Below are positions 14,116-33,910 of a stretch of DNA of 64,000 nt, one piece after another. How positions within the stretch are numbered: the stretch's first letter is position 1; every line of letters starts with the position of its first letter. The notes under the pieces were generated by a model. It did not search any database and was not told where the DNA came from. It saw only the letters and a program-made list of their open reading frames with translations. The stretch is from Candidatus Omnitrophota bacterium (lineage in GTDB: Bacteria; Omnitrophota; Gorgyraeia; Tantalellales; Tantalellaceae). The position numbers and the translations under genes were made by a program. The DNA is taken from assembly GCA_035403965.1 (NCBI GenBank), contig DAONGE010000002.1:466-64465 (forward strand), in the 5' to 3' direction.

Positions 14116-15420
14116 ATGAATATCGCAATCATAGGGGCGGGATATGTCGGCCTTGTTACGGGTACTTGTTTTTCGGAATTGGGGAACAATGTGTTCTGTG
14201 CCGATAATGATGAGCGTAAGATAGCGGTTTTGAAAGAAGGCGGCGTTCCGATATATGAGCCGGGACTAGAGGAATTGATTCGGAAAAACATGACGAAGGG
14301 GCGGCTGAAATTCACGTCGGATATCAAAGAAGCGGTTCGTGCGGCACAGGTCGTATTTATTTGTGTGGGAACTCCGTCCAGAGAAGACGGTAGCGCGGAC
14401 CTTACTGCGATAGAAAAGGTCTCGAAGGCAATAGCCGAAAGCATCGATTCATATAAGCTGATAGTTGAAAAAAGTACAGTACCGGTCGAGACCGGGGAAT
14501 GGGTTAAGAAAACCATCAACACTTTCAAAAAGAATACCGTTGAATTCGATGTCGCCTCGAATCCCGAGTTTTTAAAAGAAGGGTCGGCCATTGAGGATTT
14601 TATGAAGCCTGACAGGGTGGTTGTTGGCGTCGAGTCGAAAAAGGCCGAGGAAATATTCCGGGAACTTTACGGACCGCTGGGGACAAAGATAGTAGTTACG
14701 AATATTCAAGGCGCCGAAATAATAAAACACGCCTCTAATTCATTTCTTGCCATGAAGATCTCGTTCGCGAACGCGCTTAGCAATATCTGCGAACGTACCG
14801 GTGCCGACGTGAATGCCGTCGCGGAAGGGATAGGTCTGGATAAAAGGATAAATACGCATTTTCTCAAGGCGGGTATAGGGTTTGGAGGGTCGTGTTTTCC
14901 GAAGGACCTTAAAGCGTTCATTTATATCGCCGAAAAACTCGGTTATCCGATGCATCTTTTGGAAGAAGTAGAGAAAATAAACGACATGCAAAAAACTCTT
15001 GTCATAAAGAAAATAAAAGAACTTTTGTGGAATATACCAGAAAAATGTATCGGGGTGTGGGGGCTTGCATTTAAACCCGATACGGATGACATCCGATCCG
15101 CTCCGGCCATTGAGATAATTAAGATGCTGCTCGCGGAAAGGGCGCACATAAAGGCGTTTGATCCGGCGGCGATGAAAAGGACGAAAGAAGAATTAGGCGA
15201 TAAGATACAATACTGTCAGGATATTTACGATGTGGCTAAGGATGCTGATTGTGTGATACTTATGACGGAATGGAATGAATTCAAGGAAATAGACTGGGAA
15301 CGCCTTAAAAATATTATGAAACAGCCGGTGATCCTTGATGGTCGTAATATATATGATCCGGACAAACTTACAAAATTGGGTTTCAGATATGCAGGTATAG
15401 GACGAAAGAATAAGGCATGA
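14116..15420 (+). CDS. ugd: UDP-glucose 6-dehydrogenase
   Basis: 434 aa; N-terminal GAGYVG Rossmann motif; catalytic GFGGSCFPKD. Confidence 0.9.
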   Translation: MNIAIIGAGYVGLVTGTCFSELGNNVFCADNDERKIAVLKEGGVPIYEPGLEELIRKNMTKGRLKFTSDIKEAVRAAQVVFICVGTPSREDGSADLTAIEKVSKAIAESIDSYKLIVEKSTVPVETGEWVKKTINTFKKNTVEFDVASNPEFLKEGSAIEDFMKPDRVVVGVESKKAEEIFRELYGPLGTKIVVTNIQGAEIIKHASNSFLAMKISFANALSNICERTGADVNAVAEGIGLDKRINTHFLKAGIGFGGSCFPKDLKAFIYIAEKLGYPMHLLEEVEKINDMQKTLVIKKIKELLWNIPEKCIGVWGLAFKPDTDDIRSAPAIEIIKMLLAERAHIKAFDPAAMKRTKEELGDKIQYCQDIYDVAKDADCVILMTEWNEFKEIDWERLKNIMKQPVILDGRNIYDPDKLTKLGFRYAGIGRKNKA

Positions 15421-15442
15421 TGAACAGAACTGTGAATAAATT

Positions 15443-16756
15443 ATGAGCATATATTCGGTGTTGAAAACGAAAATAGAAAAGAAATCGGCGGTTGTCACCG
15501 TAATAGGCCTTGGATATGTAGGGCTCCCGATGGCGATGGAGTTTTGCAAGAACGGATATAAAGTAAATGGCCTCGATACGAGCGAAAAACGTATTGCGAA
15601 GCTCAAGAAAAAAGAATCATATATCAACGATATATCATCCGGCGAGATCGCAAAAGTTTTTAAGACCGGACGATTCAGCGTTACGTTGGATGACAGCGTG
15701 CTATCCGCGTCGGATGCAATAGTGATCTGCGTGCCTACGCCTTTAAGGAAGACGTATCAGCCGGATGTTTCGTATATCGTAAGCGTGGGAAAAACATTGG
15801 CGAAAAGAGTCAAGCGCGGACAGTTGATAATACTTGAAAGTACAACATATCCGGGAACGACCCGTGAAATAATACTGCCTATGCTTGAAAAAAACAAGCT
15901 CGTTCTGAATAAGGATTTTTATCTGGCGTTCTCGCCGGAAAGGATCGACCCAGGCAACGCGAAATATGATTTTACAAATATCCCGAAAGTCGTTGGAGGT
16001 TTTACTGCTGAGAGCACGGAATTGGGAAGGATGTTATATTCCAAAGTTGTTAAAAAGGTAATTGGGGTATCAAGTCCTGAAACAGCGGAAGTAACGAAAC
16101 TGCTTGAGAATACATTTCGCATAGTGAATATCGGTCTTATTAATGAATTCGCGAATCTGTGCCATAAGCTGGAAATAGATGTGTGGGAAGTTATACGTGC
16201 CGCCGAGACCAAGCCTTTCGGTTTTATGCCGTTCTATCCGGGGCCTGGAATAGGAGGGCATTGTATCCCGGCAGATCCGATATATCTTTCTTGGAAAGCG
16301 CGTAAAATAGGTTTTGAGACTAAAATGATCGACCTGGCAGCTCTTGTTAACAGGGAAATGCCCGGGCATATAGTGGACAGGACCGAACAGATGCTGAAAT
16401 CCCGCGGGAAAAAGATAAAAGGCGCCAAAGTATTTATAATGGGAGTGACATACAAGAAGGATGTGAATGATCTAAGAGAGTCTCCGGCACTGGAGATAAT
16501 TGAGAATCTTGAGAAGAAAAAAGCTAAAATAGCGTATTATGATCCATATATTCCTTATCTCGATCTTTATAAGATAAAGGGTTGTTCTGTTGCCCCCAAG
16601 CCGGATATCCTGAAAAAACAGGATATAGTGATAGTTGTGACCGATCATTCTAACGTTGATTATGGATCGATTGCCAAACATTCGAGGATCGTGTTCGATA
16701 CGCGCAACGTATTCGAGAGAAAAGGTATCCGATCCGGCAATGTAATAAAACTATGA
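15443..16756 (+). CDS. Nucleotide-sugar dehydrogenase, UDP-N-acetyl-D-glucosamine/mannosamine 6-dehydrogenase-like (WbpA/WecC family)
   Basis: 437 aa; GLGYVGLP Rossmann; GPGIGGHCIP active-site motif typical of the UDP-GlcNAc/ManNAc dehydrogenase subfamily. Confidence 0.8.
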   Translation: MSIYSVLKTKIEKKSAVVTVIGLGYVGLPMAMEFCKNGYKVNGLDTSEKRIAKLKKKESYINDISSGEIAKVFKTGRFSVTLDDSVLSASDAIVICVPTPLRKTYQPDVSYIVSVGKTLAKRVKRGQLIILESTTYPGTTREIILPMLEKNKLVLNKDFYLAFSPERIDPGNAKYDFTNIPKVVGGFTAESTELGRMLYSKVVKKVIGVSSPETAEVTKLLENTFRIVNIGLINEFANLCHKLEIDVWEVIRAAETKPFGFMPFYPGPGIGGHCIPADPIYLSWKARKIGFETKMIDLAALVNREMPGHIVDRTEQMLKSRGKKIKGAKVFIMGVTYKKDVNDLRESPALEIIENLEKKKAKIAYYDPYIPYLDLYKIKGCSVAPKPDILKKQDIVIVVTDHSNVDYGSIAKHSRIVFDTRNVFERKGIRSGNVIKL

Positions 16757-18582
16757 ACGAAAAAAACATCTATATTCTGGGGATATCGGCGTATTATCAT
16801 GACGCGGCCGCTGCGCTCCTTTGCAACGGTGAAATAATCGCTGCGGCACAGGAAGAACGGTTTACGCGGAAAAAGCATGACCCGTCTTTCCCTTCCAACG
16901 CGGTAGCATATTGTCTTAAAGAAGCCGGAGTGTCGATCGGAGATGTTGCAGTCGTTGCTTTTTATGATAAACCGTTCCTAAAATTCGAAAGACTTCTTGA
17001 GACCTATCTTGCTTTCGCGCCAAAGGGGTTAAGGTCGTTTATATCGTCGATGCCGGTATGGGTCAAAGAAAAAATATTTATGAAGGACCATTTGAGGTCC
17101 GAATTGGGGTATTCAGGAAAGATAATATTCCCTGAACATCATCATTCGCACGCAGCCAGCGCTTTTTATCCGTCGCCTTTTAAAGAAGCCGCGATACTTA
17201 CGGTTGATGGAGTGGGTGAATGGGCAACCGTAAGCTTCGGCACGGGGTGCGGGAATAAAATAGAACTTTCGCATGAGATGCGTTTTCCGCATTCACTAGG
17301 CCTTTTGTATTCGGCATTCACATACTATTGTGGTTTCAAGGTCAACTCGGGTGAATATAAACTTATGGGACTTGCGCCGTACGGCGAACCCAAATATGTC
17401 GACCTTATTCTTAAACACCTGGTGGATGTAAAAGAAGACGGTTCTTTTAAACTAAATCTGAAATATTTTGATTATTGTACAGGACTTCGTATGACGAATA
17501 AATATTTTCACGATCTTTTCGGAGGCGAACCCAGAAAACCGGAAGATAAGCTCGAAGAAAGGCATATGGACATCGCCCGGTCAATACAGGCCGTTACCGA
17601 AATGATAACGATGAAAATGGCCGTACATGTCCATCATGTTACGGGTATGGATAATTTATGTCTTGCGGGAGGGGTCTCACTTAACTGTGTTTCAAACGGG
17701 AAAATATTAAGGGAAGGACCTTTTAAAAATATATGGGTACAGCCCGCCGCGTCTGATGCCGGTGGCGCTCTCGGAGCCGCGCTTGTGGCGTGGCATAAAT
17801 ATCTGGGAAATGAGAGAAATGTTGTTCCAGAACATGACGCGCAAAAGGCAACGCTTTTGGGGCCGTCTTTCACAGATGACGATATAGAAGGATATTTTAA
17901 CCGCGAGCATATCCCATACAGACGCTTTAAATATTCGGATATTCCGGATATCACGGCCAAGCTTATAGCGGAACAAAAAGTAATTGGCTGGTTTCAGGGG
18001 AAAATGGAATTTGGTCCCAGGGCTCTCGGGGCACGGAGTATTCTTGGGGATCCGAGGTCTGCGGAAATGCAGTCATTGATAAACAGAAAAATAAAATTCA
18101 GGGAATCCTTTAGGCCTTTTGCTCCGTCCGTGCTTCTTGAGAACGCCGAAGAGTATTTCGACCTCAAAGCGGAAAGCCCGTATATGCTTATCGTGGCGAT
18201 TATCAGCGAGGGGAAAAGGCTGAAGATCGACGGGTCTGATAACCTGACAGGCCTCAATAAATTAAAGGCCAAAAGGTCGGTCGTTCCGGCAGTGACCCAT
18301 GTCGATAATTCCGTAAGGGTGCAGACCGTAAAAAGAGAAGATAATCCACTCTATTACGATGTGATCAAAAGATTCAAGGATAATTATGGATGTCCGCTCG
18401 TGATAAACACCTCGTTCAATGTGAGAGGGGAGCCTATAGTTTGTACTCCGAACGATGCGTATAGATGTTTCATGCGCACGAATATCGATTATCTAATAAT
18501 TGGGTGTTTTGTTGTGGATAAAAAAGAGCAGGATCCGGCGCGGTTAAAACTTGAGGAAGTGAACGAATTCGCCCCGGATTAA
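16753..18582 (+). CDS. Carbamoyltransferase (NodU/CmcH/NovN family)
   Basis: 609 aa; N-terminal ILGISAYYHDAAAAL..EERFTRKKHD is the characteristic carbamoyltransferase N-domain; start overlaps the upstream stop (ATGA). Confidence 0.9.
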   Translation: MNEKNIYILGISAYYHDAAAALLCNGEIIAAAQEERFTRKKHDPSFPSNAVAYCLKEAGVSIGDVAVVAFYDKPFLKFERLLETYLAFAPKGLRSFISSMPVWVKEKIFMKDHLRSELGYSGKIIFPEHHHSHAASAFYPSPFKEAAILTVDGVGEWATVSFGTGCGNKIELSHEMRFPHSLGLLYSAFTYYCGFKVNSGEYKLMGLAPYGEPKYVDLILKHLVDVKEDGSFKLNLKYFDYCTGLRMTNKYFHDLFGGEPRKPEDKLEERHMDIARSIQAVTEMITMKMAVHVHHVTGMDNLCLAGGVSLNCVSNGKILREGPFKNIWVQPAASDAGGALGAALVAWHKYLGNERNVVPEHDAQKATLLGPSFTDDDIEGYFNREHIPYRRFKYSDIPDITAKLIAEQKVIGWFQGKMEFGPRALGARSILGDPRSAEMQSLINRKIKFRESFRPFAPSVLLENAEEYFDLKAESPYMLIVAIISEGKRLKIDGSDNLTGLNKLKAKRSVVPAVTHVDNSVRVQTVKREDNPLYYDVIKRFKDNYGCPLVINTSFNVRGEPIVCTPNDAYRCFMRTNIDYLIIGCFVVDKKEQDPARLKLEEVNEFAPD

Positions 18583-18728
18583 AGGATGGAAGGTATAACG
18601 AAAAGAAGTAGTGTGCGATCTTGCGAGGAGAAACGCGGCGAAGCAATCTTTGCAAAAATCAAACCCATGAGATGCTCATTATCAGTCGTTCGCAATGACC
18701 CGGGAAATGGCAATGTTAAAATTGAGGG

Positions 18729-19145
18729 ATGGAAAACAATATGGAAAAGAACAAAGAAGTTACAATAAAAGACCTTAAACAATTCGGCATTGTGCTGGCG
18801 CTGATACTCTGGGTATTCGGGGCCATCCAATTTTTCAAAGGCAGGGATATTTATATCTGGTTTGCCGCGGCCGGAATGGTTTCCGCCGGGATGGCAGTAT
18901 TCGCCGTCCCGGGACTTAGACCGGTATACAAAGGATTTATAAAGTTAGCACATGCGATCGGATGGGTAAATGCCAGGGTTATACTTTTCCTTGTATATTA
19001 TCTGCTGGTGTTCCCGATAGGTGTTTTGATGCGGTTGGCCGGGAAAGATTCGATGTCAGCTAATTGGGATAAAAAATCGGATACATATTGGATCGAACGT
19101 CCTTTGGTAGTGGATACAAAGGAAAGTTTGGAAAACCAGTTTTAA
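18729..19145 (+). CDS. SxtJ-like small membrane protein (alternative start at 18741)
   Basis: 138 aa; 3 TM helices; resembles the SxtJ family that typically follows carbamoyltransferase genes. Confidence 0.55.
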   Translation: MENNMEKNKEVTIKDLKQFGIVLALILWVFGAIQFFKGRDIYIWFAAAGMVSAGMAVFAVPGLRPVYKGFIKLAHAIGWVNARVILFLVYYLLVFPIGVLMRLAGKDSMSANWDKKSDTYWIERPLVVDTKESLENQF

Positions 19146-19157
19146 TTTTGGAGAGCA

Positions 19158-19316: not shown

Positions 19317-19332
19317 TTGACGGGAGAACATA

Positions 19333-20283
19333 ATGGATGTTTTGATCACAGGTGGAGCGGGTTTTATCGGATCTCATCTTGCGGATAGATTGCTGGCGGA
19401 CGGTCATTCTGTTATTGCAGTCGATAATCTGATAACCGGCAGTACGGACAATATCGCGCATCTTATGGGTAACAAGAAATTCGAATTTATCGAACATGAT
19501 GTGTCTAACTACATTTTTGTAGGGAAAAAGATAGATTTTATCCTGCATTTCGCATCGCCGGCAAGTCCGGTGGATTATTTGACGCATCCTATCAAAACAC
19601 TTAAGGTAGGTTCTTTAGGTACGCATAACGCGCTCGGGGTGGCGCGTAAATACGGAGCCAAATTTCTCTTAGCTTCGACCTCAGAGGTTTACGGCGATCC
19701 GCTGGTTAACCCGCAGCCGGAAACTTATTGGGGTAATGTTAATCCCGTCGGACCGCGTGGTGTTTATGACGAAGCTAAACGTTTTGCGGAAGCGATGACG
19801 CTTGCGTATTACAGAAGCCACGGCATTGACGCGAAAATAATCAGGATATTTAATACATATGGGGAGAGAATGCGTAAGAACGACGGTAGGGTGATACCGA
19901 ATTTTATAGATCAGGCGTTGAACGACCAGCCTATTACGGTTTACGGCGACGGTTCTCAGACCAGAAGTTTTTGTTATGTTTCAGATCTTGTCGAAGGGAT
20001 CGTGAGACTTATGAAGTCGGATCTTAACGAGCCGGTGAATATTGGCAATCCGAACGAGATGACAATGAACGAGATCGCCGCGAAGATAAAAAATATCACA
20101 GGCGCAAAAAGCGAGATCGTATATGAGCCGCTTCCGGTAGACGATCCTAAAAAAAGACGGCCCGATATTACGAAAGCCAAGTCAAAATTAGGATGGGAAC
20201 CTAAGGTGTTATTGGAAGATGGGCTCAAAAAGACGATAGAATATTTTAAAATGAAAAAAAACGAAGGAAATGGCAGTGCATAG
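19333..20283 (+). CDS. UDP-glucuronate decarboxylase (UDP-xylose synthase-like extended SDR)
   Basis: 316 aa; [10 protein letters not shown]; catalytic YxxxK (YDEAKR); high similarity pattern to UXS/ArnA-decarboxylase-type enzymes. Confidence 0.85.
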
Positions 20284-20291
20284 GGAAGTAC

Positions 20292-20316
20292 CATGTGTCA
20301 AAGTGTCATGTGTCAT
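20292..20316 (+). repeat. Direct repeat CATGTGTCA x2 (three GTGTCA cores) in the UXS-gmd intergenic region
   Basis: CATGTGTCA at 20292-20300 and 20307-20315, with a third GTGTCA at 20303-20308. Confidence 0.5.
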
Positions 20317-20366
20317 ATGGGTAGGAGGATTGAGGATTTGTTTACGAGTACGACAGGGGAATAATT

Positions 20367-21356
20367 ATGAAAAAGAAAAAAGCATTGATTACTGGAATTA
20401 CCGGGCAGGATGGAAGTTATCTTGCGGAATATCTGCTGGATCTCGGGTATGAAGTGCACGGTATTATCCGGAGAGTGGCGATTGAGGACCAATCGCACAG
20501 ACTCTGGCGCATAAAAGACATAAAAGATAAAATAAAACTCCACTGCGGTTCGCTTGAAAGCTATCCCAGCATATTTAAGATTGTGACAGACGTTCAGCCT
20601 GACGAGTGCTATCATCTTGCCGCTCAAAGTTTTGTAAGCTATGCCTTTGAAGACGAATTCTCGACATTGAACGCCAATATGAACGGTACGCATTACGTCC
20701 TGTCGTCTATAAAAAATGCTGCGCCTCATTGTCGGTTCTATTTCGCGGCCTCAAGCGAGATGTTCGGTAAGGTTGAAGAAACTCCGCAGAGCGAAAAGAC
20801 AAAGTTTCATCCGCGTTCGGTATATGGGATATCAAAAGTTGCGGGGTATGATCTCACAAGAAATTACAGGGAAGCTTATAAAATGTATGCCGCGAGTGGT
20901 ATACTTTTTAACCATGAATCGCCGCGAAGAGGATATGAATTCGTCACGCGTAAAATAACAGCTGCGGCTGTTCAGATAAAATTAGGGGTTATGGACAAAT
21001 TGTATTTAGGTAATCTCGATGCTAAACGCGATTGGGGACACGCAAAGGAATATGTAAAGGCCATGCATTCGATGATGCAGCTGGATAAACCCGAGGATAT
21101 CGTGGTCGGAACAGGGGCAACACACTCCGTTCGTGAATTTGCTGATATAGCGTTTAGGCTGATGGGGCTTAATTACAAGAAGCATGTGATCGTTGATAAA
21201 AACCTTTTTCGTCCTGCGGAAGTCGAGCTTTTGGTTGCGGACTGTCGTAAAGCGAAAAGACTGCTAAAATGGAAATATAAACTTACGTTTGAGAATTTGA
21301 TAGAGGATATGATAAGGAATGACTATGACCATTTCAGCAGTAAATTGAAACAATAA
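20367..21356 (+). CDS. gmd: GDP-mannose 4,6-dehydratase
   Basis: 329 aa; ALITGITGQDGSYLAEYLL N-terminus and FNHESPRRG motif are diagnostic of Gmd. Confidence 0.9.
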   Translation: MKKKKALITGITGQDGSYLAEYLLDLGYEVHGIIRRVAIEDQSHRLWRIKDIKDKIKLHCGSLESYPSIFKIVTDVQPDECYHLAAQSFVSYAFEDEFSTLNANMNGTHYVLSSIKNAAPHCRFYFAASSEMFGKVEETPQSEKTKFHPRSVYGISKVAGYDLTRNYREAYKMYAASGILFNHESPRRGYEFVTRKITAAAVQIKLGVMDKLYLGNLDAKRDWGHAKEYVKAMHSMMQLDKPEDIVVGTGATHSVREFADIAFRLMGLNYKKHVIVDKNLFRPAEVELLVADCRKAKRLLKWKYKLTFENLIEDMIRNDYDHFSSKLKQ

Positions 21357-21368
21357 AACGGAGAAAAA

Positions 21369-22499
21369 ATGCAGATACCATTGTTGGACCTTAAGGCACA
21401 GTACGCTTCTATTAAAACTGAAATCGATAAAGCTGTCGCTAGGGTTGTGGAAAGCCAGTATTTCATACTGTCGGACGAAGTGTCTTCACTGGAGAAAGAG
21501 GTAAGCGTATATACAGGAATAAAATATGCTGCGGGTGTTGCATCGGGAACGGATGCGCTGATATTGGCGTTAAGGGCTGTTGGAATAGGGGAAAAGGACC
21601 TTGTGCTCACGACGCCGTTTACTTTTTTCGCTACGGCGGAAGCCGCGTCGCTTTTGGGTGCGGAACCGGTATTTTCGGATATAGATCCGGAAACGTACAA
21701 TATCGATCCGGTCAAAGCGGAAAAAACGATAGGATCCTTGCCTGCGGAAAAAAGGAAAAGATTGAAAGCGATAATCCCGGTTCATTTATATGGACAGTGT
21801 GCGGATATGGACGGAATAATGGAGTTGGCTAAAAAGTATAAACTAAAAGTGATCGAAGATTGCGCTCAGGCTATAGGGGCGACATACAAAGGCAGACAGG
21901 CAGGGACCTTCGGGGATATTTCGTGTTTCAGCTTTTTCCCGAGCAAGAATTTAGGTGGATTTGGCGATGGAGGAATGGTGTTGTCAAACGATGAAGACCT
22001 GATAAAGAGTGTGAAAAAACTCAGGGTGCACGGCAGTGATAAACAGTATATCCATGACGAAATAGCGTATAATTCCCGTTTGGATAGTCTTCAGGCGGCT
22101 GTACTCAGAGTAAAACTCAAAAAATTGGACGAATGGCTCGATGGCAGGCGTAAGGTCGCGGAAAAATATAACGCCGCGTTGGCCGGGCTTCCGGTGGTTA
22201 CTCCGAAAGTCGCAAAAGAGTGCGTCCATACATATCATCAATATATGTTGGCGACGGACAAGCGTGACGCGCTTATGAAACATCTTAACGATAATGGCGT
22301 AGCGTCCCGTATTTATTACCCCGTACCGCTGCATATACAGCCATGTTATAAAGATCTTGGCTATAAGAACGGCAGTATGCCAGTATCTGAAAAAGCGGCT
22401 TGTGCGGTTTTATCTCTGCCGATATATCCGGAGCTTACCGGCGAGCAGATAAAATATATAACCGATACGATAAAAGCATTCTTTGGGGATGTCAGGTAA
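21369..22499 (+). CDS. DegT/DnrJ/EryC1/StrS-family PLP-dependent sugar aminotransferase (GDP-perosamine synthase-like, given gmd upstream)
   Basis: 376 aa; DegT fold with conserved FSFFPSKNLG lysine region. Confidence 0.8.
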   Translation: MQIPLLDLKAQYASIKTEIDKAVARVVESQYFILSDEVSSLEKEVSVYTGIKYAAGVASGTDALILALRAVGIGEKDLVLTTPFTFFATAEAASLLGAEPVFSDIDPETYNIDPVKAEKTIGSLPAEKRKRLKAIIPVHLYGQCADMDGIMELAKKYKLKVIEDCAQAIGATYKGRQAGTFGDISCFSFFPSKNLGGFGDGGMVLSNDEDLIKSVKKLRVHGSDKQYIHDEIAYNSRLDSLQAAVLRVKLKKLDEWLDGRRKVAEKYNAALAGLPVVTPKVAKECVHTYHQYMLATDKRDALMKHLNDNGVASRIYYPVPLHIQPCYKDLGYKNGSMPVSEKAACAVLSLPIYPELTGEQIKYITDTIKAFFGDVR

Positions 22500-26267: not shown

Positions 26268-26993
26268 ATGTATCTTTCAATTGTGATCCCAGCATATAAC
26301 GAGGAAAAGAGAATAGGTATGACTTTGGATCGGATCCGTGAGTATGTGGACGGAAAAACATACGGATATGAGATTATTGTGGTGGATGACGGCAGTGTGG
26401 ACGGAACGGTCGATGTCGTCTGCAAAAGCAAATTATTTAAAACAGGGAAAATTAAAATAGTCAGGAATATTCAGAACTTAGGGAAGGGGTTTTCTGTCAG
26501 GGCCGGTGTACGTGAAAGTGTGGGAGAGTATGTTCTGTTTACCGATGCTGACCTGTCTACACCTATAAGCGAAATCGATAAGCTGTTCAGTGCCATGAAC
26601 AACGGGACAGATATTATTATCGGATCCAGGAACACGGCAGGATCTATGGTGAATTTGCGCCAGCCATGGTACAGAGAGATCATGGGCAAAACGTTTAATG
26701 TGTTTGTAAAGAAGATCATGCTGCTGGCTTTTAACGATACACAATGCGGATTTAAATTGTTCAGAGGAAATACCGTGCGAAAGATCGCCGAAATGGCTGT
26801 GATAAACGGGTTTTGTTTTGACGTGGAATTCTTGTATATCGCCAGTATCCTCGGGTATGAGATCAGAGAAATTGGAGTGGCCTGGGAAAATTCCGCGGAA
26901 AGCCGTGTCAAAATATTGTCAAGCCCGGTTAGTATGTTCGCGGATCTTATCAGATTAAGGATGAGGAAGGAGAAGCTGAAATATGTTAAGTGA
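26268..26993 (+). CDS. GT2 family glycosyltransferase, dolichyl/undecaprenyl-phosphate beta-glucosyltransferase-like
   Basis: 241 aa; LSIVIPAYNEE...VVDDGSVDGT; DAD motif. Confidence 0.75.
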   Translation: MYLSIVIPAYNEEKRIGMTLDRIREYVDGKTYGYEIIVVDDGSVDGTVDVVCKSKLFKTGKIKIVRNIQNLGKGFSVRAGVRESVGEYVLFTDADLSTPISEIDKLFSAMNNGTDIIIGSRNTAGSMVNLRQPWYREIMGKTFNVFVKKIMLLAFNDTQCGFKLFRGNTVRKIAEMAVINGFCFDVEFLYIASILGYEIREIGVAWENSAESRVKILSSPVSMFADLIRLRMRKEKLKYVK

Positions 26994-28290
26994 GATCCTT
27001 CCCGCGGTATTTATGGCGCTTTTTTATGCCTGCGCATGTTTTATATTTTTTAAGCGAAAAGAGTATATCGTCTACTTTATGTGTTTGACCGTCCCGTTAT
27101 ATGATTATTTTCCGGGTATTTTCTATAAGATAAACATGTTTGGGATAGCATTCACTTTAAAACCATATCTATTTTGCGAATTGGTGCTTCTTGGGGTATA
27201 TGTTCTTGATATGATAAAACATAAGCGAATGATCGAAGAAATCAGGAATATAAATGTCGTTTTTTTCCCGTTGGCTCTATTTGGGGTATTAGCATTATTT
27301 TTTACGGCAAAGGAACGAGAAAATTATTTTTGCGGGGTTAATCTGTGCCTGATGATCCTGACGGTAGCGGCATTGCCGTATTTTGTCAAAAAAGTATCCA
27401 TAAATGTCAACAAGGCACTGCGGTTCCTGATTTTAGGTTTTTTTATCAGCGCTGTGCCTATGATGAGTGCTATTTTTCTGTCAAAGATCGGCCTGTGCGC
27501 GGTGCGGTACGATTCTTTCAAGATATATGGCATGACGTTTTCAATTATAGCGATAATTATCATATTTAAATACATCACTGAAAACGATGTGCGAAGGTTT
27601 TTAAAAAAAACCGGTGTATTGTTCCTTGTCTTTGTTTTGATATTTTTAACCAGAGCGAGGGCCAGTTGGTTTAGTTTGTTTTTTTGTTTGCCGCTATTCG
27701 CTTTTTTTTCTCTAAAATATTGTTTTGCGCGAAAGGACAGGATAGTGTTGGCAAAAACCGCTATGGTTTGTCTTGTTTTAATTGCGGCTTTTTTTTGCGC
27801 CGTAAATATAGAAAAAAACATATATGGGGAATTTGTATCGTTGGATCAGATGTTTGATGCAAATAAACATATAACAAACAATGCAGACCCGATGATGTGG
27901 GGGATAAAAAATAAGGTTTTAAGGATGATATGGGCCTATTTGGCGCATGAAAGAACAATGGCCTGGCAGAAGGTTTTTAGCATTATGTATCAGAACCCTT
28001 TTCTGGGACATGGTCTAATTTATCTGCCGACGCACAATATTTTTATGGAGGCTTTTTTAGCTGGTGGCATCATTGGGATGATATTGTTTGTTTCCGGAAT
28101 GGTAAGTTTCTGTATTGAGCGTATTCATCAGATGTTTGTCTCCAGAAAGAATTTAGGGATGTATTATCTGAATGGGGCGTTTATGATATGCATTATGGTC
28201 TGGGCCATAAATGGGTTGTTTCAGACTAACTTGAATGAATATTTACCGTGGTTTATAATTGCACTGAGTTCATCGGATTTGAACTTATGA
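26983..28290 (+). CDS. Polytopic membrane protein, O-antigen ligase/polymerase (Wzy_C)-like
   Basis: 435 aa; about 10-12 TM helices with one larger periplasmic loop near the C-terminal third; start overlaps the GT2 gene end. Confidence 0.35.
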   Translation: MLSEILPAVFMALFYACACFIFFKRKEYIVYFMCLTVPLYDYFPGIFYKINMFGIAFTLKPYLFCELVLLGVYVLDMIKHKRMIEEIRNINVVFFPLALFGVLALFFTAKERENYFCGVNLCLMILTVAALPYFVKKVSINVNKALRFLILGFFISAVPMMSAIFLSKIGLCAVRYDSFKIYGMTFSIIAIIIIFKYITENDVRRFLKKTGVLFLVFVLIFLTRARASWFSLFFCLPLFAFFSLKYCFARKDRIVLAKTAMVCLVLIAAFFCAVNIEKNIYGEFVSLDQMFDANKHITNNADPMMWGIKNKVLRMIWAYLAHERTMAWQKVFSIMYQNPFLGHGLIYLPTHNIFMEAFLAGGIIGMILFVSGMVSFCIERIHQMFVSRKNLGMYYLNGAFMICIMVWAINGLFQTNLNEYLPWFIIALSSSDLNL

Positions 28291-30002
28291 GATCACTCAA
28301 GCCTTTATTTCTGATAATCGCCTTCATGGCGGTTGCTCTCCGATTATGGGGGATAGGTTTTGCTCTCCCGGATATTTTGCATCAGGATGAACCGATAATT
28401 GTGAATCATGCGTTGGCTTACGGTAGCGGTGATTTAAATCCCCATTTTTTTATTATTCCGCCGACCTGCTCATATCTTTTGTTCGTTGTATATGGTTTAT
28501 GTTTTTGTGTCGGCATTGTATTCGGATTTTTTTCAAATGCTGCGGATTTTGCCAGAGTTTTTTTTGCCGATCCTACGGTGTTTTATTTAATGGCTCGTCT
28601 TGTGCTGGGTTTTCTGCCTAGTCTCGGTAGCGTGTTCTTGACGTATCGGATATATATGAGATTTTTCAGCGATAGACGCGGCGCGATGTATGCTTCTTTA
28701 TTGTCAGCGGTAGCGTTTCTGAATGTCGTTAATGCGCATTATGCATACGTTGACAATATGCTGGTTTTTATGGTGCTTTGTGCGTGCATGATGTTTAACC
28801 GTGTGCTGGAAAGACATGACTTAAAAGGATATCTTTTGTCTGCGGCGTTCATAGGGCTGGCTGTCAACGTGAAATATAACGCTGTGATACTTCTGGTGGG
28901 ATTGTTTACGGCACATATCCTATCAAGGCGTAACATCACCGACCCGTTCACTAAAAGTACGGTTAACCGTTATTTTTTAGGGTCATTCATAATGCTTCCC
29001 GTGGTTATTGCTATAACGAATCCGTTCATGATATTCGATGGCGGACTTTTTATAGAACAACTTATGAAAATACGAAGTGAATCTCCGGGCTGGTCTCATC
29101 ATTTGTTGTACTCTCTTGCGGAAGGTATAAGCTGGCCGATTTTAGCCGCGGCTTTCGCCGGAATAGTTGTTGCATATATGAAAACAGACAGAAGGCGATT
29201 TTTTCTTTTGATTGGTTTCCCAGTATGTTTTTATATCCATCTGTCGCTGAAAAGCCAGTTGTTTTCGAGATATGCATTACCTCTCATACCGTTTTTGGCG
29301 GTGTATAGTGCGTATTTTATAAGTAATTTATACGCCAGTGTGGTGAAGAAGGGAGGTGTATGGCTGAAATTCACGGCTACGGTATGTGTGTTGCTTGTTT
29401 TAGCGCCTACATTTGTTAAATCCGTAAAGGCTGACCTATTGTTTTCTAAACCGGATACACGTAGTATCGCGAGGAAATGGATGGAAGAAAACTTACCGGC
29501 TAAGACCGCGGTCGTTGTCGATCATACGTCTTTTCGCCCCGCTATATTTCAGACTAAAGAACAGATCGAAAGCAAGAAGGCTATTGCCGGTACTGAAAAC
29601 GGATTGGAAGGGATAAAAAACCGTAAAATACAGATGATGTCGGATGCTATCGGAAATAAGAAGACATTTACGGTATATTTTCTGAATCAAAAAGGAAACG
29701 AAGAAATGAGATTTTTGGCGCAGTCGCCGACGATAAATCCTTCTTTGGATGAGTTCAAGGAGCATGGGGTAAGATATGTTACCATTAATTATAATAATCG
29801 CGACTGGGGAAACGATGAGTTTTTGCCGGAATTAAAGAAACAAGCGGTTCTGATAAAGGAATTTAGTCCTTATAACGATGGCGGGATGAGAATGCCCAAG
29901 GATAGAATAGACTACACGTATATGCCGATTTCCGGTTCCGAATTGTTTTCTAGGTGTGCTACCGGGCCGTGTATGGCGATTTATATGCTAAAAGATGAAT
30001 AA
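28287..30002 (+). CDS. GT39/ArnT/PMT-family polyprenyl-phosphate-sugar-dependent glycosyltransferase (GT-C)
   Basis: 572 aa from the ATG at 28287 (ATGA overlap with the upstream stop); N-terminal TM then DE motif (HQDEP) in the first periplasmic loop; multi-TM core plus C-terminal soluble domain. Confidence 0.6.
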   Translation: MRSLKPLFLIIAFMAVALRLWGIGFALPDILHQDEPIIVNHALAYGSGDLNPHFFIIPPTCSYLLFVVYGLCFCVGIVFGFFSNAADFARVFFADPTVFYLMARLVLGFLPSLGSVFLTYRIYMRFFSDRRGAMYASLLSAVAFLNVVNAHYAYVDNMLVFMVLCACMMFNRVLERHDLKGYLLSAAFIGLAVNVKYNAVILLVGLFTAHILSRRNITDPFTKSTVNRYFLGSFIMLPVVIAITNPFMIFDGGLFIEQLMKIRSESPGWSHHLLYSLAEGISWPILAAAFAGIVVAYMKTDRRRFFLLIGFPVCFYIHLSLKSQLFSRYALPLIPFLAVYSAYFISNLYASVVKKGGVWLKFTATVCVLLVLAPTFVKSVKADLLFSKPDTRSIARKWMEENLPAKTAVVVDHTSFRPAIFQTKEQIESKKAIAGTENGLEGIKNRKIQMMSDAIGNKKTFTVYFLNQKGNEEMRFLAQSPTINPSLDEFKEHGVRYVTINYNNRDWGNDEFLPELKKQAVLIKEFSPYNDGGMRMPKDRIDYTYMPISGSELFSRCATGPCMAIYMLKDE

Positions 30003-32265
30003 TATATCAAAAAAAGAAAACTGTGTTTTTGCGATATTGTTTATCGGTATCGTTTGTGCGGTATTTTTTGATGTCGTTTCATTAAGAAAAACTTTTTTAA
30101 AAGGTGATTATCTGCAGCAGTTTTTCCCGTGGTATGAGGTATACGCTTCAAACTTGAAAACAGGGCATCTGACATTTTGGATGAAAGAGATACAATGCGG
30201 GTTCCCCTTATTTGCGGAAGGGCAGATAGGACAGCTATATCCGTTAAATGTGCTATTTTTTCTTTTATTACCGTTCAAGGCGGCATATAACTATTCGTTT
30301 ATCTTTCATTTTATTATCGGGGGAATGGCGACTTATTTTTTTGCCAGAAGAAAAGGCGCCTGTTTATTGGGAGGGTTGTTATCGGCCATTCTGATCTCTT
30401 TCGGGAGCGTGTATTCCGGATGTTTTGTAAATATATCCGCGATGAAAACATTGGTATGGTTCCCGTTCGTGTTAATGCTTTATGATATATATTTAAGTAC
30501 ACAAAAGAAGAAATTTATCCTGTTTGCCGGGTTGATCCTCGGCTTGCAGTGTCTGGCCGGTTCGATGCAGATGTCGCTTTACTCGGCATTCTTCTACGCG
30601 ATCTATTTCTTTTATCAAAATCATGAAAAAGGGAACAATCCGTACTGTGCTGTCAAAGATATCATTTTGGTGGGGATGATTGCTGCTCTTGTTTCTTTGC
30701 CGCAGACGGTTGAAACTTATATTTTATCGGGCTTTTCCAATAGGGCGGCGCGAACTGTAGATTTTGCCCTGTGGAATTCGTTATCCCCGGTCGCGTTAAC
30801 GGGAACGGTACTGCCGTCTATAGGTTCAATATTTTCTCGGGGGAACATGATATATGTCGGGTCTCTGAGCCTTTTTTTTGCCATGATAGCCGTGTGGCTT
30901 TCAAAGGACGACCGCAGACAACGTATATCCGTCATTTTTCTTGCTGTAGCGTTGTTTTTTGCGCTGGGGAAATTTAACCCGCTTTATGTGGTGGCTTTAA
31001 AAATATCGGGATTTTATTCAATGCGCGCACCATCAAGATTTTTGTATTTTGCAGTGTTTGCGTTAGCTATATTGTCCGGGATAGGATTTACATATTTTCT
31101 GAAAAACAGATCGTGCGTGCCCAATCGGATCATTAAGATATTTACAGGGCTTATTTGTGCCACGGTGGGGGTGATTGTGGCTGCCAGATTGACGCTGATA
31201 TTTTTTGGGGAAAAGATACTAACGTTAGCTAAGGATTATGTATCGATGAATATATACGGCAAACCTTTTCACCGGTATGATATCGACGTATATATGGCTA
31301 AAACTGAGGGGATCTATAACGCGATCGTCAAAAACTTCTCGTTTAATAATTTTGATCTATGGATGAGCATATGTTTTCTGATCGGCGCAGTGTTTTTGGT
31401 GTGTGTGGGCACAGTATATTTTTTGAGGTCAAAAAAGTTTATAGGAATTATTTGTTTATGTTATGTGGCGGCGGAATTATTGTATTTTTCCAATTTCTCT
31501 GTCGGAGTATGGCCCGAACTGGATGATTTTAACTCTGTGTTGCCTCGTGAACAAAAAATATATCAGAAGATCAAGAATGATGCCGATAATTTTAGGATAT
31601 GTCCTTTTGGGGAATTCTCAAAAATGCCTTTCTGGATAAGGCCCGCGATGAATGCCGTCTACGGGATTGATAGCATATCAATATATACCCCTTTGGCCGA
31701 CAGTAGGTACTTTTTTATGATGGAAGGACTGGGGACAGTCGATGATTCCATGGGGATATTCCCGGCCGACAAAGGTGCATTATATAAAAAACTTAATATG
31801 TTGTCGGAACTGAACGTGAAATATATTGTTTCTACGATGGACTTGAGCGATCCGTCGCTGGAATTTGTCCTAAAAGAAAACAAGATCTATCTGTATCAAC
31901 TGAAAAAGTTTGTTTCCAGATACAGGTTTCGTACAAATGTCGTATCCGGAAATGCTCCATCTTTTGATCTTTTAGTGGAAAAAGAAACAAGTGGACTCTC
32001 TATGCTAAAGATTTTTTCAGAAAACGGCGGACGCCTTGTATTCGCACAGAAGTGTTATCCGGGATGGGAGGTTTTAGTGGATGGCCAGAAACAAGTCCCG
32101 GAATTTTCAAACGGAGTATTGCAGGGTGTTGTTTTATCCGGCGGTGTGCATAACGTTATTTTTAGGTATCGGCCGATATGTTTTAATGTATTCTTTCCGA
32201 TATCTTTAACGATATTTATCGTCGTAGCGCTATTGGCAATAACGGGGGATCGGAAAGATGAATAA
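29995..32265 (+). CDS. YfhO-like large polytopic membrane protein (GT-C superfamily)
   Basis: 756 aa; many TM helices with a C-terminal periplasmic beta-rich domain and a final TM; architecture of the YfhO family. Confidence 0.45.
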   Translation: MNNISKKENCVFAILFIGIVCAVFFDVVSLRKTFLKGDYLQQFFPWYEVYASNLKTGHLTFWMKEIQCGFPLFAEGQIGQLYPLNVLFFLLLPFKAAYNYSFIFHFIIGGMATYFFARRKGACLLGGLLSAILISFGSVYSGCFVNISAMKTLVWFPFVLMLYDIYLSTQKKKFILFAGLILGLQCLAGSMQMSLYSAFFYAIYFFYQNHEKGNNPYCAVKDIILVGMIAALVSLPQTVETYILSGFSNRAARTVDFALWNSLSPVALTGTVLPSIGSIFSRGNMIYVGSLSLFFAMIAVWLSKDDRRQRISVIFLAVALFFALGKFNPLYVVALKISGFYSMRAPSRFLYFAVFALAILSGIGFTYFLKNRSCVPNRIIKIFTGLICATVGVIVAARLTLIFFGEKILTLAKDYVSMNIYGKPFHRYDIDVYMAKTEGIYNAIVKNFSFNNFDLWMSICFLIGAVFLVCVGTVYFLRSKKFIGIICLCYVAAELLYFSNFSVGVWPELDDFNSVLPREQKIYQKIKNDADNFRICPFGEFSKMPFWIRPAMNAVYGIDSISIYTPLADSRYFFMMEGLGTVDDSMGIFPADKGALYKKLNMLSELNVKYIVSTMDLSDPSLEFVLKENKIYLYQLKKFVSRYRFRTNVVSGNAPSFDLLVEKETSGLSMLKIFSENGGRLVFAQKCYPGWEVLVDGQKQVPEFSNGVLQGVVLSGGVHNVIFRYRPICFNVFFPISLTIFIVVALLAITGDRKDE

Positions 32266-33910
32266 GGATATTGTAGTTAAGTCAGCAGTTGTTGGCTTGT
32301 TGCTTGTATTTGCTTTGCTGGTTTTTTCAAGTATTTTCCCGGCTAAGAAGTCTCCCACATGTGATGAGCTTGCTCACCATGTTCCTGTGGCGTACATCCT
32401 TTTGACAAAATGGGATTTTAAAATGGATCCCTCGCAACCGCCGTTGGCCAGATATATTATGGCGATCCCGCTTAAACTTTTTTTAAATCTACATGTGCCG
32501 GAAAAGAAATCAGACTGGAGACGGGAAGACCGTTCGGAATACGGCCATGATTTTTTCTATGTTTATAATAGCGATCCCGATAAGATCATTCTTTTGGCGC
32601 GCACCGCTATGATTTGTGTCGGTATTTTTACGGCGTTCCTTGTTTTTTATGCCGCCAGAAGATTTTATGGGAATGCCGCCGCTCTTTTCAGTCTCTTCCT
32701 GTTTGTTTTTTGTCCGAATATGATAGCTAATGCCCAGCTGGCAACAATAGATATGACGGCGTCATGTTTTATTCTGCTTTCCGTTGTTATGTTTTGTGAG
32801 TTCGCAGATAATCACTCCCGGATAAATATTATCTTGGCGGGAGTTGCTCTCGGGCTGGCGCAATTATCCAAATATACTTCGATATTCCTGTATCCGTTTT
32901 TTTTGCTGATGATAATCCCAAGGGCGTATTCGGATAAGGGGACGAAAAAGATTTTGATCCGGACAATGTATGTTTTTGCAATATCGGTCATGATCGTTTG
33001 GGCAGGTTATGGGTTTAACTCGGACCCTATATTATCAGACTCGATGCGTATAGATGAAAAGCTCTCGCTTGTACATAATATGGTCCAAAAAATACCTTTT
33101 TGGCAGACGGCGTGGGATCCGGCGCTTGATAACATGTTTTTAAAATGGCCTTTTCCGCTCGGGGCTCATGTAATGGGGATACTGGGGGTGGCACGTCACG
33201 GATATGAAGGCCATAGCGTCTATTTTATGGGGGAATGGGGAAAAGGGAGCCCCTTTTATTTTTTAATCGCCTTTTTGATAAAAACTCCGGTGCCGTCGAT
33301 CATTTTTATTTTACTGGGTATTTGTTTGACGTTTTTTAAAATGCGCCCGGCATGGAGAGATAAATTTTTATTAGCCACTGTCCTGGTGATATTTTTGATG
33401 GCAAGTTTCAGTAAGCTGCAGCTTGGATTGCGCTATATTTTGCCGATGTATCCGATATTCTTTATATTGGCCGGAAGGAGTGTCGAGGCTTTTAGGTGGA
33501 AGTATTTTAAACCTATCGGGATAGTTCTTGCCGTATGGTATATTTTTAGCGCGGTTAATACATGGCCTAATTATCTAAGTTATTTTAACGAATTTATCGG
33601 CGGGCCGGCTAACGGCTATAAATATCTCAGGGATTCGAACCTCGACTGGGGGCAGGATCTGCCCGAGCTTTCGGCGTATCTTAAAAAAAATAAAATAGAA
33701 AATATCAAACTGCTTTATTTTGGGACGGCCGATCCCGATAGGTACGGTATAAAATATGAACCGTTGGACGCTAAGGAATATTTATCTCCGGCTGAAAGTA
33801 TTTATGCCATAAGCGTGCACAAACTGGATACCGTTAAATGGACAAAAGATAAAGAACCTATTGCGAAGATCGGATATTCAATATTTGTGTATGATTGCAG
33901 GAGCCGATAA
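32258..33910 (+). CDS. GT39/ArnT-like glycosyltransferase (GT-C)
   Basis: 550 aa; N-terminal TM, DE motif (CDELAHH) in the first loop, about 11 TM helices, C-terminal periplasmic domain. Confidence 0.6.
   Translation: MNKDIVVKSAVVGLLLVFALLVFSSIFPAKKSPTCDELAHHVPVAYILLTKWDFKMDPSQPPLARYIMAIPLKLFLNLHVPEKKSDWRREDRSEYGHDFFYVYNSDPDKIILLARTAMICVGIFTAFLVFYAARRFYGNAAALFSLFLFVFCPNMIANAQLATIDMTASCFILLSVVMFCEFADNHSRINIILAGVALGLAQLSKYTSIFLYPFFLLMIIPRAYSDKGTKKILIRTMYVFAISVMIVWAGYGFNSDPILSDSMRIDEKLSLVHNMVQKIPFWQTAWDPALDNMFLKWPFPLGAHVMGILGVARHGYEGHSVYFMGEWGKGSPFYFLIAFLIKTPVPSIIFILLGICLTFFKMRPAWRDKFLLATVLVIFLMASFSKLQLGLRYILPMYPIFFILAGRSVEAFRWKYFKPIGIVLAVWYIFSAVNTWPNYLSYFNEFIGGPANGYKYLRDSNLDWGQDLPELSAYLKKNKIENIKLLYFGTADPDRYGIKYEPLDAKEYLSPAESIYAISVHKLDTVKWTKDKEPIAKIGYSIFVYDCRSR

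Follow-up and report, generated by a model that had tools for sequence, protein, structure and literature searches.

The 64,000-nucleotide stretch of DNA analysed here (the window), from the Candidatus Omnitrophota contig DAONGE010000002.1, carries between positions 14116 and 33910 a conserved, phylum-characteristic glycosylation island of the Omnitrophota. We propose, at a probability of about 0.7, that this island specifies a multi-branch, three-component system for periplasmic glycosylation of the cell envelope, in which short family 2 glycosyltransferases (GT2s) feed several GT-C glycosyltransferases acting at the periplasmic face. An earlier reading made from the letters alone (the sequence-only reading) had suggested the same mechanism, which is supported by GT2s that resemble lipid-donor synthases and by membrane proteins of GT-C and Wzy_C families. 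The general logic of such systems is known; the arrangement of the island, with what is probably a new amino-sugar branch, has probably not been described before.

How might the island work? A uridine diphosphate (UDP)-glucose dehydrogenase, Ugd, would provide UDP-glucuronic acid, a decarboxylase of the UXS type would provide UDP-xylose, and a second dehydrogenase would provide the uronic acid of a UDP-N-acetylhexosamine (UDP-HexNAc). Gmd would make guanosine diphosphate (GDP)-4-keto-6-deoxymannose, which two aminotransferases (DegT1 and DegT2, one of them with a metal cupin) would convert into GDP-amino-dideoxyhexoses, and a carbamoyltransferase with SxtJ-like and DUF5989 membrane partners would carbamoylate some intermediate. 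Two membrane-peripheral GT2s (GT2a and GT2b; three GT2s in relatives) would load single sugars onto polyprenyl phosphate, a flippase would move the lipid-linked sugars, and the GT-Cs would then transfer them to an acceptor at the periplasmic face. In a core branch, the single lipid donor made by GT2b would be common to three GT-Cs, namely PMT2a, YfhO and PMT2b. In an amino-sugar branch, GT2a, the cupin and DegT2 would supply a GT-C that resembles MptA and PIG-M, most simply by a GDP-based route to a polyprenyl-phosphate-linked 4-amino-4,6-dideoxyhexose that would be Arn-like in logic. The nearest relatives of GT2a are GDP-mannose-using synthases of dolichyl-phosphate mannose (DPMS) and those of the MptA-like protein are mannosyltransferases dependent on polyprenyl-phosphate mannose; because this neighbourhood is DPMS-like, perosamine-synthase/LegC-like and MptA/PIG-M-like, a GDP- or mannose-type cargo is expected for GT2a. 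What the analysis shows directly are the families and folds, the catalytic motifs, the synteny and the co-occurrence of the genes; the donor sugars, the flipping step and the acceptor are what we infer.

Genes were assigned by Pfam, NCBIfam and PDB-sequence searches of the open reading frames (ORFs) of the window, with the Pfam scan of large ORFs covering 58 of them and, additionally, the ORF of the DUF5989 peptide. Both GT2s are matched best by enzymes that charge lipid monophosphates. GT2a aligns with the P. furiosus DPMS 5mlz over residues 10-235, near its whole length, and its top NCBIfam models are AglJ, PgfS and a dolichyl-phosphate-hexose transferase, all under cutoff; GT2b matches DPMS (E 3e-19), ArnC (6e-15) and GtrB (7e-14) in the PDB and, again under cutoff, the models for PgfS (the best), ArnC, EpsD, PpgS and a dolichyl-phosphate-hexose transferase. 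The motif D97-x-D99 of GT2a is kept in 25 sequences and D93-x-D95 of GT2b in 42. Hydropathy gives neither protein a transmembrane (TM) segment, and the membrane domains typical of processive synthases are absent from both. By their nearest relatives, GT2a and GT2b may thus be assigned, at family level, as putative polyprenyl-phosphate sugar synthases, and the call of two undecaprenyl-phosphate-sugar synthases holds for the top structures (DPMS, ArnC, GtrB) and for most of the top NCBIfam matches.

The membrane proteins form the second half of the argument. Five tandem GT-C-like proteins had been expected here; there are indeed five polytopic proteins, but GT2b splits the first from the other four. 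PMT2a and PMT2b, which had been called GT39 enzymes, are GT-Cs that match Pfam PMT above its cutoff of 22.7 bits (32.8 and 38.3 bits, respectively), but PMT_2 outscores PMT in both (44.2 and 48 bits; cutoff 26.1). The two share local similarity only, 26% over 142 amino acids (aa). For PMT2a, the longest ORF starts at a GTG at 28248, and an ATG at 28287 makes an ATGA overlap with the stop codon of the Wzy_C gene; because of this overlap, and because the resulting 571 aa match the length of the orthologues (563-576 aa), 28287 is the likely start. A search of PDB sequences returned nothing for PMT2a, PMT2b or the Wzy_C protein. The fold of YfhO was approached through an AlphaFold2 (AF2) model built from 38 homologues (pLDDT 90.9, pTM 0.90), for which the top 21 Foldseek matches in the PDB are all GT-Cs (STT3, ArnT 5ezm, AftD, DPY19, EmbA/B/C and PglB), with ALG9 lower and transporters appearing only at E > 0.1 with a probability of at most 0.2. 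The polytopic protein upstream of GT2b, left unclassified in the sequence-only reading, is GT-C-like as supposed there and can be classified as MptA/B- or PIG-M-like: TIGR03459 (alpha-1,6-mannopyranosyltransferase A) matches it under cutoff (E 1.7e-12), its orthologues match PF26314 (MptA_B_family), and a five-sequence profile (A1) finds glycosylphosphatidylinositol (GPI) mannosyltransferase 1 at E 6e-11. It has about 11 TM segments. The fifth protein, with about 11 TM segments as well, passes the Pfam cutoff for Wzy_C narrowly, in line with its description as Wzy- or ligase-like, and is of the ligase/polymerase type rather than a classical GT-C. In short, the membrane proteins do not classify as transporters: the YfhO-like call is borne out by Pfam and by the modelled fold, and the other four proteins fall into GT-C or Wzy_C families. 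Mapping of GT-C motifs found the acidic residues sought in the first loop, directly after the N-terminal TM segment in all four cases: D38 of YfhO is invariant in 38 sequences, H45-x-D47-E48 of PMT2a (numbered from 28248) is kept in at least 90% of 40 sequences, D36-E37 of PMT2b is kept in at least 90% of 33 sequences, and D103 of the MptA-like protein is invariant.

With four to five GT-Cs of different families and two to three lipid donors, one might ask whether the enzymes build a single chain. In such a stepwise periplasmic assembly of a lipoglycan, like that of mycobacterial lipomannan and lipoarabinomannan (LM/LAM) or of lumenal glycans of the endoplasmic reticulum (ER) and GPI anchors, each GT-C would add the next sugar, and the kinship of one GT-C to the chain extenders MptA, PimE and PIG-M, together with a DPMS/Ppm1-like GT2a, would be natural. 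We nevertheless consider it unlikely: the window holds no gene for primer synthesis (a PimA-like GT4), and the number of GT-Cs varies among relatives, which fits optional decoration better than an obligatory chain.

The conservation of the island is extensive. By blastp, the window was set against nine loci obtained by look-ups and a genome scan and against a further 80 from metagenomes; a contig search with the alignment of the MptA-like protein, which used a single narrow peptide pattern, yielded 3 loci only. The homologues nearest to YfhO share 47-48% identity with it, and those that bear a name belong to Candidatus Omnitrophota; a look-up of the exact YfhO sequence gave no record. A cupin 100% identical to that of the window is on record from an Omnitrophota metagenome-assembled genome and from a 212-kb JGI contig (Ga0116247_10000052). 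A constant core, GT2b–PMT2a–YfhO–PMT2b, recurs in dozens of metagenomic loci, usually followed by an HTH_17 gene and nonulosonic-acid genes. Among 42 unique loci with enough flank, a PMT_2 gene lies directly upstream of YfhO in 21 and directly downstream in 18. As this synteny occurs in many independent metagenomic contigs, the cluster is far beyond chance. The nucleotide-sugar part, second dehydrogenase–carbamoyltransferase–(SxtJ–DUF5989)–UXS–Gmd–DegT1, recurs in five loci (L005, L007, L016, L026, L097), with the second dehydrogenase upstream of the carbamoyltransferase in L016, L026 and L097 as in the window; DegT1 follows Gmd in L001, L004/7, L011, L016, L026 and L038. The block GT2a–cupin–DegT2–MptA-like gene is all-or-none, with all four genes in 5 unique loci besides the window and none of them in 23.

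Other parts come and go among the loci, namely Wzy_C, SGNH/GDSL genes and methyltransferases, and the number of GT-Cs varies too. Searches by tblastn with the GDSL/SGNH proteins and methyltransferases of relatives found nothing in the window, which lacks the methyltransferase seen with the module or the triad in other loci. No member of the island is less conserved than Wzy_C: it is absent from L001 and L004, stands in another position in L002 and in the same position in L009. This matters for the idea that the region is an ordinary Wzx/Wzy locus for O-antigen or capsule, with the GT2s as Leloir transferases on an undecaprenyl-diphosphate-linked repeat, Wzy_C as polymerase or ligase and the other genes incidental. 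The presence of Wzy_C, the many nucleotide-sugar genes and the adjacency of lptD would suit such a locus, but the most constant genes are those for the GT-Cs, and the top structures matched by the GT2s are synthases of lipid-monophosphate sugars. Additionally, no GT4 or GT1 glycosyltransferase, initiating phosphoglycosyltransferase, Wzx, Wzz or ABC exporter was found in the 64-kb window, which argues against a conventional O-antigen locus. We regard this explanation as very unlikely.

The amino-sugar branch depends on how the two aminotransferases and the cupin are paired. The sequence-only reading had joined Gmd and its neighbouring aminotransferase into a perosamine-type route and an FdtA-like isomerase with the second aminotransferase. 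By similarity to PDB entries, these pairings are reversed. DegT1, next to Gmd, is closest to 7b0d (for which no literature was found), QdtB (342 bits), WbpE (310 bits) and 2oga, and scores 202 bits with perosamine synthase; QdtB, WbpE and 2oga are sugar C-3 aminotransferases. DegT2, next to the cupin, is closest to perosamine synthase (3bn1/3dr4, 324 bits) and reaches 373.8 bits with the LegC family model (cutoff 420), the library holding no equivalog model of perosamine synthase; both GDP-perosamine synthase and LegC are GDP-sugar 4-aminotransferases.

Nor is the cupin FdtA-like: no FdtA match appears in Pfam even at E <= 1, and the protein passes instead the model of the WbuC family. A profile search of PDB sequences returned nothing for it. 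Its residues H51, H53, E65 and H104 do not vary among 38 sequences and together make up a metal site of the classic cupin kind. An AF2 model (pLDDT 91.4) confirms the cupin fold at the level of prediction, with Foldseek matches that are weak and generic, including seed globulins, all at E >= 0.03; comparison with FdtD, FdtA and WlaRA gives E >= 0.04 and TM-scores of 0.40-0.48. These matches are too weak and generic to establish the cupin as an isomerase, and we treat it as a candidate keto-sugar isomerase or epimerase. We also considered it as the partner of DegT1, in a pair of ketoisomerase and C-3 aminotransferase, and rejected this since DegT1 occurs without a cupin in L005, L016, L026 and L038. 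The cupin always travels with DegT2. We know of no function assigned to WbuC-family cupins. A suggestive lead comes from IncHI2 plasmids: there mcr-9, which encodes a phosphoethanolamine transferase acting on lipid A, has a wbuC-family cupin gene as its conserved neighbour on the downstream side (PMC9495039).

The same three genes are also found together outside the island. Distant homologues of the cupin (44-52% identity) were inspected on contigs that lack the island gene context. At L090 (9256-14720), the order is GT2, cupin, DegT, methyltransferase and a polytopic DUF6311 protein of 793 aa, which has a discoidin (F5/8 type C) domain at its C-terminus, amid housekeeping genes; L091 (10001-15580) has cupin, DegT and methyltransferase along with a 120-aa, 4-TM protein of EamA/SMR-like type, a GT2 and an unclassified polytopic protein of 627 aa. 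Compared with the other paralogues of the window, the GT2 of both loci is nearest to GT2a (39%) and the DegT is nearest to DegT2 (50-55%). At L095, the cupin accompanies a longer GT2, a methyltransferase and a DegT split into two ORFs, and at L096 it is found only with methyltransferases and GT4/GT2 genes. In recurring beside different polytopic proteins, the triad behaves as a portable unit, combined with one large membrane transferase or another, and its recurrence lends independent support to an amino sugar on a lipid carrier. In three-component systems, a constant lipid-donor module likewise serves acceptor-specific GT-Cs (PMC11127046). A bolder version of our proposal, which we advance tentatively as a possibility, is that the GT2a/cupin/DegT2 cassette makes a new polyprenyl-phosphate donor of a GDP-derived 4-amino-4,6-dideoxyhexose that different GT-Cs use in Omnitrophota and in the organisms behind L090 and L091, and that forms, in Omnitrophota, one branch of an ER-like assembly line with three donors and four to five GT-Cs.

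To what are the sugars transferred? Our guess is lipopolysaccharide (LPS) or some other glycan anchored to a lipid, with envelope proteins in second place. If the same mechanism served envelope or surface proteins instead, the acceptors might be, for example, pili, an S-layer or the surface proteins of great length that have been reported from Omnitrophota. It would be in keeping with this that both PMT_2 proteins exceed the cutoff of the protein O-mannosyltransferase family PMT, that GT2b finds its best NCBIfam match in PgfS, the GT2 with which streptococci glycosylate proteins, and that nonulosonic-acid genes, whose products often serve protein glycosylation, follow the island. No gene for an acceptor protein is linked to the island, however; the PMT_2 family also includes transferases that act on lipid A and on glycans, ArnT among them, and the discoidin-type carbohydrate-binding domain on the partner GT-C in L090 suggests a glycan acceptor there. 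On balance, protein acceptors seem somewhat unlikely.

Among the nucleotide-sugar enzymes, a UDP-glucuronate decarboxylase had been foreseen and is present, but as an enzyme of the UXS rather than the ArnA type: human UXS1 (2b69/4gll, E 4e-117) matches over residues 3-308 with 394 bits, against about 99 bits for ArnA in the PDB search and 113 bits for the ArnA model NF005998 (cutoff 777). It has a YDEAKR motif. Given these scores, the expected product is UDP-xylose and not the UDP-4-keto-pentose required by Arn chemistry. For Ugd, which reaches 483 bits with a subfamily model of nucleoside diphosphate (NDP)-sugar dehydrogenases, we infer UDP-glucuronic acid as the probable product. The second dehydrogenase, which the sequence-only reading had overlooked, is 27% identical to Ugd, and its top NCBIfam equivalogs are UDP-N-acetylmannosamine dehydrogenase and TviB, all under cutoff; it is presumably a UDP-HexNAc dehydrogenase-like enzyme that would give a UDP-HexNAc uronic acid. 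Gmd scores 378 bits in Pfam and 381.8 bits with TIGR01472, under the cutoff of 415.

These results also bear on whether the island is a true Arn pathway, in which UDP-glucuronic acid undergoes oxidative decarboxylation and transamination to UDP-4-amino-4-deoxy-L-arabinose, an ArnC orthologue loads this sugar onto undecaprenyl phosphate and an ArnT orthologue adds it to the phosphates of lipid A. The right enzyme classes do cluster beside lptD (Ugd, a decarboxylase, DegTs, GT2s and PMT_2 proteins), and the sequence-only reading had drawn the likeness. Taken literally, the likeness fails: besides the UXS-type decarboxylase, the ArnB model NF008658 gives 190.8 and 244.4 bits (cutoff 631) and the ArnC model NF007986 gives 47.4 and 70.3 bits (cutoff 529), and the aminotransferases resemble, respectively, the C-3 type and GDP-perosamine synthase. 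Formyltransferase, ArnD and ArnE/F are absent from the Pfam matches of the 58 large ORFs and the DUF5989 ORF, other small ORFs not having been scanned systematically. A true Arn pathway is thus highly improbable.

The carbamoyltransferase was called correctly from its sequence, and both of its domains are recognised at high significance. The SxtJ-like and DUF5989 genes that follow it had been missed; they accompany the carbamoyltransferase at every locus where they were detected, in an order of carbamoyltransferase, SxtJ and DUF5989 whose names come from saxitoxin sxtI/J/K. Hydropathy gives the SxtJ-like protein 3-4 hydrophobic segments. The carbamoyltransferase is 70-73% and DUF5989 81-85% identical in L005 and L007, and the SxtJ-like gene after the carbamoyltransferase is kept in L005, L007 and L097; the trio as a whole (16753-19316 in the window) is kept in these same three loci. 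The trio suggests a membrane-tethered carbamoylation. The SxtJ/DUF5989 pair was considered as the missing flippase and rejected as the default, since it tracks the carbamoyltransferase and not the GT2 or GT-C genes. An 81-aa ORF at 19088-19333 that overlaps the DUF5989 gene in another frame is spurious. In L005 (GCA_015231405.1, JADGBR010000002.1), sulfate genes are inserted at 3782-7192 between UXS and DegT1 (an APS kinase, a CysD-like protein of the PAPS_reduct family and a CysN/C-like GTPase-kinase), which hints at sulfated glycans in some lineages.

Several observations weigh against the proposed multi-branch system. No Pfam family of a flippase (GtrA, ArnE/F-like, SMR/EamA-like or MATE) occurs in the window. 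A third short GT2, GT2c, accompanies DegT1 in 7 of 8 relatives and is lacking in the window. The nucleotide-sugar routes outnumber the lipid-donor synthases, so that part of the sugars would have to serve other purposes or other enzymes encoded beyond the window. No NCBIfam score at equivalog level reaches its cutoff, and substrates are consequently assigned by nearest relative only. As to the amino-sugar branch, the all-or-none pattern of the GT2a block within Omnitrophota may represent only one or two evolutionary events, no Gmd lies less than 10 kb from the triad at either L090 or L091, and in its classic metal site the cupin differs from the known nucleotide-sugar ketoisomerases.

The features are collected in Table 1. 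All 18 island genes lie on the + strand with intergenic gaps of -11 to +146 nt, several neighbours overlapping by 4-11 nt, and the edges of the island are gene edges, from the start of Ugd at 14116 to the stop of the final PMT_2 gene at 33910. The ORFs coincide exactly with the boundaries originally given, and the gene content is indeed located there; in the inventory, several assignments had to be corrected, and the second NDP-sugar dehydrogenase and the SxtJ/DUF5989 pair are to be added. Every one of the 58 large ORFs of the window is on the + strand, and the GC skew is positive in all of its 2-kb bins (+0.14 to +0.28). A promoter scan of the window performed no better than on shuffled sequence (53 found, 48.5 expected), and a terminator scan showed slight enrichment (28 against 19.3 expected); the operon structure was not resolved by the scan.

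Table 1. Genes of the glycosylation island and its immediate flanks, with positions in the window.
Feature	Position	Strand	Basis or remark
LptD-like LPS-assembly protein	11749..14004	+	flank, outside module; Pfam LptD_N E 2.4e-8
Ugd, UDP-glucose 6-dehydrogenase	14116..15420	+	three UDPG_MGDP_dh domains; TuaD 577 bits
Second NDP-sugar 6-dehydrogenase (WecC/TviB/WbpA type)	15443..16756	+	TIGR03026 441 bits
NodU/CmcH-family carbamoyltransferase	16753..18582	+	Carbam_trans_N E 1.7e-100, Carbam_trans_C E 1.3e-72
SxtJ-like small membrane protein	18729..19145	+	Pfam SxtJ E 4.5e-12
DUF5989 (SxtK-like) membrane peptide, 52 aa	19158..19316	+	Pfam DUF5989 E 7.2e-25
UXS-type UDP-glucuronate decarboxylase (short-chain dehydrogenase/reductase, SDR)	19333..20283	+	human UXS1 394 bits
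Gmd, GDP-mannose 4,6-dehydratase	20367..21356	+	Pfam GDP_Man_Dehyd E 5.6e-113
DegT1 sugar aminotransferase	21369..22499	+	nearest C-3 aminotransferases in PDB
GT2a, 244 aa, DPMS-like	22560..23294	+	5mlz E 1.4e-38
WbuC-family cupin, 134 aa	23310..23714	+	TIGR04366 45.2 bits, cutoff 42
DegT2 aminotransferase, perosamine-synthase-like / LegC-like	23723..24847	+	3bn1/3dr4 E 1e-95
MptA/B / PIG-M-like polytopic protein, 466 aa	24851..26251	+	TIGR03459 E 1.7e-12
GT2b, 241 aa	26268..26993	+	PDB: DPMS, ArnC, GtrB
Wzy_C-family protein	26983..28290	+	Pfam Wzy_C 34.6 bits, cutoff 31.7
PMT2a, PMT_2 GT-C	28287..30002 (longest ORF from 28248)	+	PMT_2 44.2 bits
YfhO-family GT-C	29995..32265	+	Pfam YfhO 31.9 bits, cutoff 28.5
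PMT2b, second PMT_2 GT-C	32258..33910	+	PMT_2 48 bits
B12-binding radical SAM enzyme	34333..35793	+	B12-binding + Radical_SAM domains; module membership less certain

Homologues of the LptD-like protein encoded upstream match PF04453 and are named LptD in Omnitrophota. In L097, too, lptD (56% identical at the protein level) lies directly upstream of the island, and the order dnaK–dnaJ–Zn-ribbon–DUF1015–accD–ABC–GGDEF–GGDEF–lptD–island is kept there, with the VanZ gene of the window absent. Since this whole stretch from dnaK to lptD is conserved, the adjacency of lptD is weak, non-specific evidence of functional coupling. On the downstream side, the island is followed by the gene of the B12-binding radical SAM enzyme, by a gene for a small HTH_17 protein and by some 27 kb devoted to nonulosonic-acid biosynthesis. 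The radical SAM enzyme, with homologues in or next to the module of L002, L006, L015, L018, L025 and L031, is a probable accessory sugar-modifying enzyme. The HTH_17 gene (35810-36061) occurs in 20 of the 38 unique loci that extend at least 6 kb downstream of YfhO, and it is 66-84% identical across loci whose neighbours are 30-55% identical; we consider its product a candidate regulator of the island, unusually constrained. Inside the 422-nt gap at 33911-34332, a 66-aa ORF (34002-34202) matches the C-terminal end of SGNH/AlgX/GDSL proteins (ALGX, E 7e-6) and is probably a gene relic; full-length GDSL/SGNH genes are found in the module of L001, L004 and L006.

The region at 36058-63535 contains two nonulosonic-acid pathways, of legionaminic and pseudaminic type. 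The first comprises LegB, LegC, a PglD-like protein, PIG-L, NeuB, NeuC, a CBS-NTP-transferase and a CMP-synthetase, and the second PseB, a PseC-like protein and, further along, NeuB. Interleaved with them are genes for four radical SAM enzymes (one B12-binding), an acyl carrier protein, two AMP-ligases, a GNAT protein and methyltransferases, a content that suggests heavily acylated or methylated nonulosonic acids; the genes at 42323-43465, 56244-57230 and 61700-63535 have no Pfam match.

Why does this locus matter? The bacteria of this phylum are abundant and ultra-small, have not been cultured and probably depend on hosts; to our knowledge nothing is known of their surface chemistry. We found no published description of the island; the main text of the main genomic survey of the phylum contains none of the LPS and glycosylation terms looked for, and a preprint of 2026 on complete genomes goes no further than the generic label 'LPS/capsule glycosyltransferases' for genes in hypervariable regions. 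The island is the largest conserved glycan locus in this analysis and has a fixed place between the dnaK...lptD stretch and the nonulosonic-acid genes. Its size, conservation and fixed place make it a prime candidate for the locus that determines contacts between cells, susceptibility to phages and immune-like recognition in the phylum. Additionally, the GT2/cupin/aminotransferase cassette could be what produces a new lipid-linked donor of an amino sugar. If so, the orphan WbuC family would gain a role in lipid-carrier amino-sugar chemistry, and the Arn-type modification of the envelope with cationic sugars would have a convergent counterpart based on GDP-sugars; were the sugar cationic, it could represent a new route to polymyxin-type resistance.

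Among known systems, the Arn pathway shares with the island, as proposed, the transamination of a keto-sugar, the loading of the resulting amino sugar by a GT2 onto polyprenyl phosphate and its transfer by a GT-C of the PMT_2 clan at the periplasmic face, and the triad locus L091 even has an ArnE/F-like EamA/SMR protein of 4 TM segments. Unlike Arn, the island has a UXS-type decarboxylase, GT2s without the pair of TM helices found at the C-terminus of ArnC, a probably GDP-derived amino sugar and, as its partner, an MptA/PIG-M-like rather than ArnT-like GT-C; the formyltransferase/deformylase cycle was not found in the island.

The core branch has a parallel elsewhere. In Rhizobium, one dodecaprenyl-phosphate galacturonic acid (Dod-P-GalA) donor, made by the GT2 RgtE with Ugd required upstream, is common to RgtA/B/C/D, ArnT-like GT-C paralogues that galacturonosylate different positions of the LPS core and lipid A; likewise, the island combines an upstream Ugd with one GT2, GT2b, whose donor would serve several GT-Cs (PMT2a, YfhO and PMT2b). 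The GT-Cs of the island, however, span two families (PMT_2 and YfhO), and no UDP-glucuronate 4-epimerase was identified. Three-component systems such as Gtr and the GT136 pentofuranose systems (Kelly et al. 2024, PMC11127046) similarly join a polyprenyl-phosphate-sugar synthase to a GT-C that acts after export, with a constant donor module and a varying GT-C partner, whereas in the island no flippase gene was found, several branches are fused, and amino-sugar and carbamoyl chemistry is added. A YfhO GT-C paired with a GT2 nearest to PgfS recalls the Gram-positive CsbB/GtcA/YfhO system for teichoic-acid glycosylation and the Pgf system of S. mutans (PMC7389260), but the host of the island is a diderm with LptD, GtcA is absent and YfhO stands between two PMT_2 proteins. 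Finally, the DPMS-like GT2a near an MptA/PIG-M-like GT-C resembles the actinobacterial Ppm1 with PimE, MptA and MptB, and the eukaryotic DPM1 with the PIG-M and ALG mannosyltransferases. In the island, an aminotransferase and a cupin always stand between the synthase and the GT-C, which leads us to expect that the cargo is a modified mannose-type sugar and not mannose itself.

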